Shown here: in pieces, positions 7,518 through 18,046 of the stretch | How positions within the stretch are numbered: position 1 is the first letter of the stretch | Layout of the letters: every line of letters begins with the position of its first letter | From: a virus | Virus record (IMG/VR): IMGVR_UViG_3300031454_000001 | Location: 7,546 to 71,545 of that record | DNA length: 64,000 bases | Reading direction: 5' to 3' (one strand) | Made by a program: the position numbers and the translations under genes | The notes under the pieces: model-generated | What the model was told of the DNA's origin: nothing | The model's database searches: none | What the model saw: the letters and a program-made list of their open reading frames with translations, nothing else

Positions 7518-7783
7518 AATATTGATTTTCGGTTTAGCAGCTTATAATAAATTTTCATCGAATCATTGCCATGTAATTTCCGGATGGCGTTCCTGCTAAT
7601 AATCCATCTGCCTTTCTTATCAACGTTCAGGACATGCTTTATCTTCAAGAATGCATTTTCCCGGTGAAACGATTCGGGGCTCATATTACCGCTATAAGTT
7701 TTGTAACCAACACGGCCATTATGATTTTTGGCTTTGATGGCATACATTCCGGATAAAAGCTGGCGAAACAAAAGTGACGGCAT
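7514..7783 (-). CDS. Hypothetical protein
   Basis: 89-aa basic ORF with 4-nt overlap. Confidence 0.55.
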   Translation of the reverse strand: MPSLLFRQLLSGMYAIKAKNHNGRVGYKTYSGNMSPESFHRENAFLKIKHVLNVDKKGRWIISRNAIRKLHGNDSMKIYYKLLNRKSIL

Positions 7784-13049: not shown

Positions 13050-13451
13050 TTAGTTTTTATAATGAACATATTTTGCATACCCCATCCTTACCATCATTGT
13101 ATTGACGGACACGGTATCGCTAGGATTCAAATACACATAGGCTATCCACCGTCCGTATATATCCTTTCCATGTGTATCATACCAAACTGTTTTTTCAAGT
13201 GTAAGATTTGATAGAGCAATTTGGGATTTATGAGCATTGGCAGTATCATTTCCTTTTTTCATCTCAGGAGCATTTATATCTGAAAGCCTTAGCCTTACCC
13301 AGGCATGAACTCCTAAACCCAGATAGGTATCCACATCCTCTGTATCTCCATCCACCACATAAATTACTTTACCGGTGAAATGTGTGGGCTCCTTCTGTGC
13401 GTAACCGTTAAGGCAGGTAAAAATGAGTAGTATGAATGTGATGTATTTCAT
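13050..13451 (-). CDS. Thermonuclease (SNase) family protein with signal peptide
   Basis: VVDGDT, RLRLSDINAPE, DIYGRWIAYV and MVRMGYA motifs; hydrophobic N-terminus. Confidence 0.88.
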   Translation of the reverse strand: MKYITFILLIFTCLNGYAQKEPTHFTGKVIYVVDGDTEDVDTYLGLGVHAWVRLRLSDINAPEMKKGNDTANAHKSQIALSNLTLEKTVWYDTHGKDIYGRWIAYVYLNPSDTVSVNTMMVRMGYAKYVHYKN

Positions 13452-13463
13452 GCTAATAAAATT

Positions 13464-13880
13464 TTAGGACCATGACTTATGGTTTTCATTTATCGTTTCG
13501 TTGCCATCATATTCATGAATATAGTAATCCGTTCCATCTGGTATTTCTACCACTTTAAGATCTGCACAACTTCCGTTTGCTTCTCCTTTTAATTGTTCTA
13601 TGACTGAAATCAAATCAGTATCAGCTCTATCTTCAGGTGTACATGTGAGGTAATATTTATCCCATAAAGTTTTAGTATCAACATCATTTGGATTTTCTAT
13701 TGAGAATGCGGTAAAATACCATTGGGCTTCTGTAATCAAAATCGGTTCGTATGTTTTGTTATCAAACGTGCCTTCATCTTTAAAAAAGAAACATTTAATT
13801 TCTTTTAATTCATAATACTCTTTCATTCCCTTTGCCGATAAAGAAAAACCTCCAAAGCATTTGTTAATAGCTATTTTCAT
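13464..13880 (-). CDS. Conserved phage hypothetical protein
   Basis: MKIAINKCFGGFSLS...R.D.DLI.V.E.L...LKVVEIPD...EYDG.E pattern. Confidence 0.75.
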   Translation of the reverse strand: MKIAINKCFGGFSLSAKGMKEYYELKEIKCFFFKDEGTFDNKTYEPILITEAQWYFTAFSIENPNDVDTKTLWDKYYLTCTPEDRADTDLISVIEQLKGEANGSCADLKVVEIPDGTDYYIHEYDGNETINENHKSWS

Positions 13881-13902
13881 AATATTTTATTTTTAAACTT
13901 GA

Positions 13903-13953
13903 AAACCGGTAGCATTACTGCCTTTTCAGAAGGCTTTCGCCTTTACCGGTTTG
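13903..13953 (-). other. Branched RNA hairpin / possible terminator
   Basis: AAACCGGT...ACCGGTTT outer stem enclosing AAGGC-GAAA-GCCTT. Confidence 0.4.
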
Positions 13954-14152
13954 TTTTGTGTTCCTTGTGAAGTAACCATGTATCGCGCTCTATGGGGCTT
14001 TTAATGCGACCGGATGACACTTTTTTGATGTGATAATTATCATAATCATCTACGGCAAATATTAAGAATATAAATTCTATATATGGAGCATGCATTATCT
14101 AGTCATGGGTTCTACCACTATTCCAAGTACCAACACAATAATTTAAAAGAAC

Positions 14153-14380
14153 TTAATCTTTCCAAGTGATTGCTTTTACAGCAGCAATTTGTGCTAACTC
14201 TGTTTGAGTTATAGCGAATGAACACCATCTTTTTACTCCGGTCTGATCGGTTGTGCTTCTTAGATCATTTAACTGGTCAATTGCATTAGCATAAATCTTT
14301 TTGCATTTTGAAACTGAATCAAGATTGGACGGATTTAATTGCAATTCAACTGCCTTTTCACCGAAAGTTTGTTCTGACAT
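14153..14380 (-). CDS. Small helical protein resembling Acb2/Tad1 hairpin (DUF7681-like) anti-defence proteins
   Basis: RWCSFAITQTELAQIAAVKAITW resembles the recalled Acb2 C-terminal helix pattern RW.....T..Q.G..A..RAI. Confidence 0.55.
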   Translation of the reverse strand: MSEQTFGEKAVELQLNPSNLDSVSKCKKIYANAIDQLNDLRSTTDQTGVKRWCSFAITQTELAQIAAVKAITWKD

Positions 14381-14452
14381 ATTGATATTTATTTAATTAC
14401 TTCTTTAAAAGTGCCGGGGTTACCTAAAACACCCGGCTTAAATCAAAGACAT

Positions 14453-14554
14453 TTAAACCTTCACTTCAACGGATGGCGCTGCTGTTGGAGCTGGCGCTGC
14501 TGTTGGAGATGGCGTTTCTACTGTAACTGTTGTGTCTCCTCCTGGATTTATCAT
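14453..14554 (-). CDS. 33-aa Pro/Thr/Ala-rich micropeptide
   Basis: MINPGGDTTVTVETPSPTAAPAPTAAPSVEVKV, AT-rich start context TTAAATATG. Confidence 0.45.
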   Translation of the reverse strand: MINPGGDTTVTVETPSPTAAPAPTAAPSVEVKV

Positions 14555-14582
14555 ATTTAATGTCGCTTTAAAATGCGATTCG

Positions 14583-14630
14583 TGGAGCATGAAGGAAATC
14601 GAACCTTCCGACACCACCAATGGATGCCCC
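14583..14630 (-). ncRNA. 48-nt tRNA-like mini-RNA (acceptor stem, mini D-arm, T-arm; no anticodon arm)
   Basis: GGGGCAT/ATGCTCC 7-bp stem with G3-U70 and discriminator A; CCA-TTGG-TGG; GAAGG-TTCGATTT-CCTTC. Confidence 0.65.
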
Positions 14631-14958
14631 GTTATTATTGTGTTGGACGCTTAGGGTAGTTAAGCGCAGGTTGTTAACCACCAATAATCGCCAACACAAT
14701 TATTTATAAGAATATTGTGTAGGCTCCGGGCTCTTACCGGTATGCACGTCTGTTCAGAGGATTACCAACACAATTATTTCTAAGAACTTTTTTAAAAGTA
14801 CCTGCCGGATCATCAACCCGACTTCCCTTAGCGGCATTCGCAATGTCAAGTGTATTACCCGTTGTTCTTCCAACTGTCATATCATTATTATTGCGTTGAT
14901 AGTCTATGTCGTCGCTTCGCTGATCAGGCGTAGTAAGGCTTCAGAATTACCAACACAA

Positions 14959-15477
<519 letters not shown>

Positions 15478-17170: not shown

Positions 17171-18046
17171 TCAGGAAACTAATAAGTTGTAATTGATATA
17201 TCCTTCGAATTCATTAATCCAATCATATACTATTTGCAATACTTGATTTGTCTCCGGTGTATCACCAGGTTTCACATTCATGAAGAACATCTCAATTGGG
17301 CGTGATGAATCTTTAATTTTATTAATATTATTAGCTATTGTAATATCGCGTGACTTCATTAAAGTTCCACACAAACATGAACATTCGCCTTCATAAACAG
17401 AACCGTCTATTTTACCATCTGAAATCGCTTTTTTAAGATTTTGTATTTCAGGAATAGCTCTTAGCAAAACGTCAAATAAGTCTTTTTTAATTTCGCGAAG
17501 GTCAGCACCGCGAAGGTCAGCACCGATAAGGTTAGCACTGCTAAGGTCAGCACCGCGAAGGTCAGCACCGCGAAGGTTAGCACCGCGAAGGTCAGCACCG
17601 CTAAGGTTAGCACTGCGAAGGTCAGCACTGCTAAGGTCAGCACCGCTAAGGTTAGCACTGCTAAGGTTAGCACTGCTAAGGTCAGCACCGCGAAGGTCAG
17701 CACCGCGAAGGTTAGCACTGCTAAGGTCAGCACCGCGAAGGTCAGCACCGCTAAGGTTAGCACTGCGAAGGTCAGCACCGCGAAGGTTAGCACTGCGAAG
17801 GTTAGCACTGCTAAGGTCAGCACCGCGAAGGTCAGCACCGATAAGGTTAGCACTGCTAAGGTCAGCACTGCGAAGGTCAGCACTGCTAAGGTTAGCACCG
17901 CGAAGGTCAGCACTGCGAAGGTCAGCACCGCGAAGGTTAGCACTGCTTTTTATTGCTTCTAGTAGTGTGTCCTTAATATTATTATTTTCATTTTCGTACT
18001 CGAAAAGTATTGATCCCCACAGCGATTTTATTTTAATCTTAATCAT
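17171..18046 (-). CDS. Pentapeptide repeat protein
   Basis: About 30 A(D/N)L(R/S/I)(G/S) repeats between unique N- and C-terminal domains. Confidence 0.92.
   Translation of the reverse strand: MIKIKIKSLWGSILFEYENENNNIKDTLLEAIKSSANLRGADLRSADLRGANLSSADLRSADLSSANLIGADLRGADLSSANLRSANLRGADLRSANLSGADLRGADLSSANLRGADLRGADLSSANLSSANLSGADLSSADLRSANLSGADLRGANLRGADLRGADLSSANLIGADLRGADLREIKKDLFDVLLRAIPEIQNLKKAISDGKIDGSVYEGECSCLCGTLMKSRDITIANNINKIKDSSRPIEMFFMNVKPGDTPETNQVLQIVYDWINEFEGYINYNLLVS
17499..17946. repeat. 15-bp tandem repeat encoding the pentapeptide repeats
   Basis: Units GCAC(C/T)G(CG/CT/AT)AAGGT(C/T)A repeated in tandem. Confidence 0.9.

Follow-up and report, generated by a model that had tools for sequence, protein, structure and literature searches.

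The closest described relatives of the protein considered here are the phage sponges Acb2 and Tad1. In PaMx33 Acb2, the residues R67 and T74 coordinate cA3 and cAAG through their phosphates at a three-fold axis, and the R67A substitution abolishes binding; Y11 contributes base stacking and K26 a salt bridge, both for cyclic dinucleotides (PMC10312549). The T4 homologue Vs.4 (PDB 7UQ2) binds dinucleotides, not cA3, and its D61R mutant still fails to bind cA3 (PMC10312549). In CmTad1, R88 and T95 constitute the trinucleotide pair, and the hexamer interface is formed by Q98, M102, W103 and K106 (PMC10680739). Acb2 homologues are numerous, with 4,204 non-redundant sequences in IMG/VR v3, and include Acb2_43, a hexamer that uses a remodelled N-terminal segment for a different signal (PMC12393519, Hadary et al. 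2025). Sponges of the Acb2 family also set off Panoptes counter-defence (PMC13712596), and possession of one therefore bears on host range.

We analysed a window of 64,000 nucleotides (positions 7,546 to 71,545 of IMG/VR record IMGVR_UViG_3300031454_000001). The source record is 73,556 bp long and complete according to CheckV. It carries portal, large terminase, tail fibre, spike, helicase and RecT-like genes, and the portal, terminase and tail genes indicate a tailed phage. A search of GenBank phages for close relatives gave no near match. The gene of interest, here called acb2-like, lies at 14153..14380 on the minus strand and consists of 75 codons, the first an ATG, and a TAA stop; all of its flanking genes are on the same strand. 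The product of 75 residues has the C-terminal end VKRWCSFAITQTELAQIAAVKAITWKD and is predicted to form a short N-terminal helix followed by a two-helix hairpin. The reading frame is more than a chance occurrence, because 20 close homologues share 16 invariant columns and 2,412 sequence clusters match the corresponding profile.

Like PaMx33 and JBD67 Acb2 (PDB 8H2J, 8H2X and 8IXZ; Pfam PF24729), the acb2-like protein is small and of phage origin, has a two-helix hairpin in its model and is encoded by a stand-alone gene. Those proteins are longer, however (94–108 aa, compared with 75), come from phages of another host phylum, and have a hairpin that extends approximately 20–35 residues further at the tip. 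They carry an N-terminal KGY where the clade of the acb2-like protein has a TFGEKAVG..FNPS motif, and they end in AQPD or AQPE rather than TWKD. Tad1 (CbTad1, PDB 7UAV and 7UAW, and CmTad1) shares the Pfam hairpin domain and has a similarly short hairpin, but is about twice as long (~120–140 aa) owing to an N-terminal antiparallel beta-sheet domain. That domain is absent here: the protein has only 75 residues, its AlphaFold2 model contains no strand, and its N-terminus is common to the homologues. The protein is thus closer to Acb2 than to Tad1. Acb2_43 is comparable in that the N-terminal segment of the present clade is likewise distinct and highly conserved. It differs by description in having extra beta strands at both ends, where none are predicted here, and in its contact residues T4, H5, L6, V7, K19 and K55, which are unmatched.

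Family membership and predicted fold

Profile comparisons place the acb2-like protein in the Acb2/Tad1 hairpin superfamily. Its own score against PF24729 (hmmscan) is 24.8 bits (E 2.6e-5; residues 17–72 on profile positions 7–57 of 58), just below the gathering cut-off of 27 bits. A search of 5.8 billion proteins returned 19 other homologues at 51–87% identity, 17 of which were already labelled PF24729. When the 20 sequences were scanned individually, 19 matched this family, with a best E of 7.2e-14; the homologue P0002, which is 87% identical to the window protein, scored 31.9 bits. At E <= 1e-3, a profile of the clade recovered 2,412 clusters (50% identity); 899 of these also passed E <= 1e-10. 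All 30 of the nearest clusters in the ESM Atlas, as judged by language-model features, belong to PF24729 (best score 0.92, with 217 of 256 features shared). Acb2 itself has been described, and many of the relatives carry the automatic UniProt/Pfam label 'Acb2/Tad1 hairpin domain-containing', so that membership as such is already on record for much of the group.

Comparisons with experimentally characterized members gave consistent results once sufficiently deep alignments were used. A direct phmmer search of PDB sequences with the window protein found no match, and a profile of 20 sequences found spurious matches only. Vs.4 and Acb2 came into reach in the PDB only at a depth of 61 sequences (alignment A2). 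Searched against all PDB sequences, the A2 profile had T4 Vs.4 (7UQ2, E 0.017) and PaMx33 Acb2 (8H2J/8IXZ, E 0.3) as its best natural Acb2 matches; designed helical proteins and the dynein regulatory complex protein 9y6s (E 0.26) scored as well or better. Sequence searches of the PDB at E <= 10 recovered no Tad1 chain. With hhalign, the clade aligned to JBD67-type Acb2 at 76% probability (E 2.3e-5) and to Vs.4-type Acb2 at 32% (E 4.7e-4), values to be read against the 62% that two experimentally validated Acb2 groups reach against each other at the same alignment depth. Searches of NCBIfam found no family, for JBD67 Acb2 as well as for the window protein, and PHROGs yielded only weak matches to families of unknown function.

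The AlphaFold2 model (alignment A1; mean pLDDT 94.8) has a short helix at residues 6–10 and long helices at 21–43 and 47–72 joined by a loop at 44–46, in agreement with the two-helix protein of 75 residues that had been proposed from the sequence. A structural match to the sponge hairpin was obtained for the monomer model in BFVD, where the top two hits are proteins named Acb2/Tad1 hairpin domain-containing (TM 0.76–0.87, 28–32% identity), but not in the PDB, where Foldseek returned nothing at E <= 1e-3. An exhaustive VIA-align search placed Vs.4 at Z 6.6, at rank 38 amid generic unrelated helical hairpins. Fold searches of the PDB do not discriminate because the hairpin is too simple; the predicted fold is consistent with Acb2 and undiagnostic alone. 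Taken with the Pfam assignments of the homologues, the Atlas neighbours, the BFVD and PDB profile matches and the alignment of the R67 and T74 positions described below, these observations bear out the original prediction of an Acb2/Tad1-like protein. We consider it probable, from sequence and by analogy with characterized members, that the product of the gene is a small sponge of the Acb2 family for host nucleotide alarm molecules. A small gene of an uncultured phage, probably of Bacteroidota, can thereby be annotated functionally with confidence.

Candidate pocket residues and possible ligands

The C-terminal helix can be mapped robustly by alignment to JBD67 and PaMx33 Acb2 and to Vs.4. The pattern RW..I..T..Q.G..A..RAI, which the original prediction had given for this helix, occurs literally in JBD67 Acb2 as RWAAIAKTDIQTGVMALVRAI and is also present in PaMx33 Acb2 (8H2J). 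As had been suggested, the helix of the window protein lines up with it: hhalign places residues 47–72 on JBD67 residues 78–103. With numbering transferred from JBD67 to PaMx33 via 8H2J, R51 (codon 14228..14230, minus strand) aligns with Acb2 R67 and CmTad1 R88, and T58 (codon 14207..14209, minus strand) with Acb2 T74, Vs.4 T68 and CmTad1 T95. R51 falls on D61 in Vs.4, position 65 on M81 of PaMx33 Acb2 and M75 of Vs.4, and K69 on R85 and R79, respectively. The remaining pairs with PaMx33/JBD67 Acb2 are W52 with W68, A66 with A82, A70 with A86 and I71 with I87.

The similarity extends to the other characterized proteins. Vs.4 has ...T..K.ASMWACRAV in this helix and the clade consensus is ...T..Q.AQMWAVKAI; the two nevertheless differ at the pocket arginine, and Vs.4 has a longer hairpin. 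The consensus residues R51, T58, Q61, M65, W66 and K69 are spaced exactly as the pocket and interface residues R88, T95, Q98, M102, W103 and K106 of CmTad1. Among 170 relatives, R51 is Arg in 157 and T58 is Thr in 151. As judged from the alignments, no feature of the protein is better preserved than the trinucleotide pocket.

The N-terminal arm could be placed with less certainty, since this mapping depends on low-confidence alignment columns. In the most probable register, K27 (codon 14300..14302, minus strand; Lys in 167 of the 170 relatives) would be the equivalent of Acb2 K26 and Vs.4 K23, an assignment of moderate confidence, and L15 (TTA codon, 14336..14338, minus strand) would take the place of the base-stacking Y11, with a deletion of three residues between them. 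Three independent indications agree on this register: Pfam coordinates, a greedy hhalign alignment and hairpin geometry. The Pfam alignments pair P17 of the window protein with profile position 7, N16 of the homologues P0007 and P0014 with position 3, and G10 of JBD67 with position 1. Greedy hhalign to the Vs.4 family sets F15-N16-P17 on the aromatic-x-Pro segment Y8-K9-P10 and K27 on K23; the N-terminal arm of Vs.4 is longer, its aromatic and Lys being three residues further apart. Finally, the register predicts a hairpin tip at approximately residue 46, and the model has its loop at 44–46. Against JBD67-type Acb2, hhalign gave conflicting registers of low probability when run globally and when confined to the N-terminus. 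The ungapped N-terminal register of HMMER to Vs.4 and PaMx33 was rejected, as the tip would then fall near residue 39, within the confident helix 21–43.

By analogy with solved members, six copies would assemble as a trimer of dimers, and this putative hexamer would hold host alarm nucleotides without cleaving them. Effectors of CBASS, and possibly also of Thoeris, would then never be switched on, allowing the phage to replicate. The likeliest function is that of a hexamer that soaks up the cyclic oligonucleotides of CBASS, and this would imply that the hosts of this phage use cyclic-oligonucleotide (CBASS-type) immunity. In addition to the pocket at the three-fold axis, a second, peripheral pocket could be composed of T5-F6-G7-x-K9-A10-V11-G12-x-x-F15-N16-P17 together with K27 and the C-terminal T72-W73. 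Our best guess for the ligand of this particular protein, a weak one, is of the cA3/cAAG type, since R51 and T58 are intact while the probable stacking aromatic is replaced by Leu. It is weak because Vs.4 D61R, which still fails to bind cA3, indicates that the Arg and Thr are necessary and not sufficient. Under a putative mapping, the conserved R41 is placed where Y37 of Vs.4 is said to clash with cA3.

Substitutions at three conserved positions, G12E, F15L and M65I, set the window protein apart from more than 94% of its relatives. Among the 170 relatives, G12 is found in 164, F15 in 161 (with Leu in 4) and M65 in 165, and the codons for E12, L15 and I65 are each one nucleotide from the consensus codon. 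The shortfall in the Pfam score coincides with these substitutions. They may have weakened or retuned binding, in particular of dinucleotides.

A possible, if unlikely, alternative is that this is a true Acb2-family sponge whose N-terminal pocket has been rebuilt for a non-classical ligand, such as the Thoeris signal 3'cADPR, the c-di-GMP of Bacteroidota CdnE/TIR-STING systems, or another molecule. The ligand range of Acb2 is wide: type I Thoeris was inhibited by 10 of 46 tested homologues, and Acb2_43 binds 3'cADPR through N-terminal residues without inhibiting CBASS (PMC12393519). TFGEKAVG..FNPS and TWKD are invariant in the clade and absent from PaMx33, JBD67 and T4 Acb2, and the window protein lacks an aromatic residue at the position equivalent to Y11, all of which would fit a changed specificity. 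The strong conservation of R51 and T58 argues instead for a trinucleotide pocket. The gcADPR pocket of CbTad1 (F82, N92, R109 and R113) corresponds to T43, C53, A70 and K74, by a numbering offset taken from R90 = R51 only, and is not conserved as F/N/R/R at these positions.

A bolder form of the same idea, which we regard as doubtful, is that the clade represents an uncharacterised major branch of Acb2 with a near-invariant N-terminal pocket for a signal not known to be sponged by Acb2, and that L15, E12 and I65 of this phage amount to a natural specificity switch. One candidate signal would be the c-di-GMP of CdnE/TIR-STING CBASS, a system often found in Bacteroidota.

The same three substitutions could also be taken as signs of a decaying copy that keeps the fold and has lost useful binding, a reading that we judge improbable. 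Its basis is that E12, L15 and I65 occupy sites that are almost always Gly, Phe and Met and lie one nucleotide from consensus, and that the Pfam score falls under the cut-off which the 87%-identical P0002 exceeds. Yet the frame runs uninterrupted over its full length in a complete and compact genome, and K27, R41, R51, T58, K69, T72 and W73 are all kept. Moreover, Leu occurs at the aromatic position in three other relatives, and A66, which differs from the consensus Trp, is typical of the nearest clade.

Distribution of the clade and genomic surroundings

The clade is defined by the N-terminal TFGEKAVG..FNPS and C-terminal TWKD hallmarks and comprises approximately 2,400 clusters at 50% identity. 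No tested member came to light in the literature surveyed, which for Hadary et al. was the article itself. Because the clade is very large, spans several phyla and has no tested member that we found, a single binding study would annotate thousands of phage genes. The acb2-like gene reveals no new kind of system; what is new is modest, namely the motifs of a large and distinct clade and the unusual substitutions in this copy.

Relatives were identified in 434 IMG/VR stretches and 65 loci in prokaryote genomes. Those in cultured phages include Pasteurella Pmp11 (60% identity), DSL-LC05 and Enterobacter EcP1 (49%). The closest prokaryote-genome relatives are in Dyadobacter and other Cytophagales and Chitinophagales, and further copies occur in Pasteurellaceae, Burkholderiales, Actinomycetota, Acidobacteriota and Saccharibacteria. 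The clade thus spans phages of Bacteroidota, Pseudomonadota, Actinomycetota, Acidobacteriota and Saccharibacteria. The distribution of the nearest relatives fits a host in the Bacteroidota, which had been suggested for this phage and is probable. SMODS (CD-NTase) genes scored above the cut-off in two of the five Cytophagales genomes that carry prophage copies. Two metagenome scans for the context of the closest homologues (87–78% identity) found nothing nearer than 67%.

A few relatives have unusual forms. In P0023 and P0024 the Acb2 hairpin is called as a fusion with thioredoxin, and in P0119 as one with a crAss001_48 domain (PF21825); PF21825 fusions were left out of the Acb2 set of Hadary et al. 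(PMC12393519). Many other relatives have N-terminal extensions of up to 150 aa, which could be gene-calling artefacts. Avibacterium paragallinarum NCTC11296 has five copies with identical scores in five places (L094–L098), at 58% identity to the window protein, presumably in repeated prophages.

Clustering of the neighbouring ORFs of 157 related loci revealed no partner family in more than 12 loci. The acb2-like gene is a mobile stand-alone cassette without a conserved partner, as is typical of sponges. In this phage, its surroundings look like an accessory region, and none of its neighbours matched known anti-defence families. A staphylococcal-nuclease-like protein is encoded at 13050-13451 (minus strand; PF00565, E 8e-14), and its N-terminal stretch MKYITFILLIFTCLNGYAQ looks like a signal peptide. 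On the other side is a gene for an Rv2179c/RNase AS-like 3'-5' exoribonuclease (14959-15453, minus strand; PF16473, E 6e-11; phrog_2259, E 1e-50). This gene has approximately 70–72% nucleotide identity to Enterococcus and Bacillus myophage genes, a similarity across phyla, and its last codons and stop lie within the first copy of a local repeat. Further upstream, a pentapeptide-repeat protein of 291 aa (17171-18046, minus strand; PF00805, E 2e-55), with 29 copies of a 15-nt period at the DNA level, may be a DNA mimic.

Repeats and RNA elements near the gene

A family of 35-nt repeats has copies starting at 14123, 14684, 14758 and 14943. Its motif CCAACACAATWATTT occurs in four mismatch-free plus-strand copies, at 14130, 14691, 14765 and 14950, a count that none of 100 shuffled sequences reached. 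The fourth copy (14123..14157, minus strand; GTTCTTwwAAATwATTGTGTTGG on the gene strand) starts at the TAA stop codon (14153-14155) of the acb2-like gene, and thus adjoins the coding sequence as originally reported. A reading of the repeat as a Bacteroidota promoter was considered: TAATTGTG is one mismatch off the -7 element TAnnTTTG, and there is no consistent -33 element. Rfam gave nothing at gathering thresholds, a relaxed search of 13800-15050 gave chance-level matches only, and ARAGORN detected no tRNA or tmRNA.

The proposal that protein and RNA effectors are combined in an anti-defence island here is not supported. Folding of the 78 nt that follow the acb2-like stop is poorer than that of shuffled sequence (z +1.5). 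The repeat is unlinked to the gene in the related loci: its 10-mer core is present in 3 of the 157 homologue-carrying loci, compared with approximately 2 expected by chance, so the adjacency of repeat and gene is specific to this phage. There is also no conserved neighbour, and joint action of the protein and the RNAs is not supported. Upstream of the gene, an RNA unit of 133 nt (14580-14712) does fold (z -2.9). It is separated from the acb2-like gene by a GC-rich hairpin followed by CACUUUUAA (14411..14437, minus strand), approximately 30 nt upstream of the start. This hairpin (-15.3 kcal/mol, z -2.86, 0 of 200 shuffles as good) looks like a terminator or processing site of the upstream unit. 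That the protein is no sponge at all, and is instead a generic helical hairpin or an RNA-associated factor acting with the flanking small RNAs, is very improbable: the gene does sit between repeat copies beside a tRNA-like element, and helical hairpins do resemble many unrelated folds, but the profile-level homology to Acb2 is specific and includes functional residues, the repeat and RNAs are missing beside the homologues in the 157 loci, and the RNA stretch after the stop does not fold.

The tRNA-like element, a mimic of the top half of a tRNA, is at 14583-14630 on the minus strand. It has an acceptor stem GGGGCAT/ATGCTCC with a G3-U70 pair and a T-arm-like GAAGG-UUCGAUUU-CCUUC, and is located 3' of a 10-bp closing stem, ATTGTGTTGG/CCAACACAAT. 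Neither ARAGORN nor Rfam made a call for it.

The 15-mer AAATAATTGTGTTGG was also found in a 4.3-kb viral fragment (L223, IMGVR_UViG_3300023251_000343), at positions 47, 2187, 3739 and 3923. The fragment has no blastn similarity to the window region. Each of its 15-mers is preceded by a conserved block of approximately 35 nt that contains TTGACA, and these copies suggest that the 15-mer may act as a regulatory site or leader common to both sequences and may not belong to an RNA gene. A candidate coding sequence, a small ORF of 33–55 aa rich in Pro, Ala and Thr (14453-14555, minus strand), occupies the interval from the tRNA-like RNA to the hairpin that precedes the acb2-like gene, and it includes an 18-nt tandem duplication at 14474-14509.
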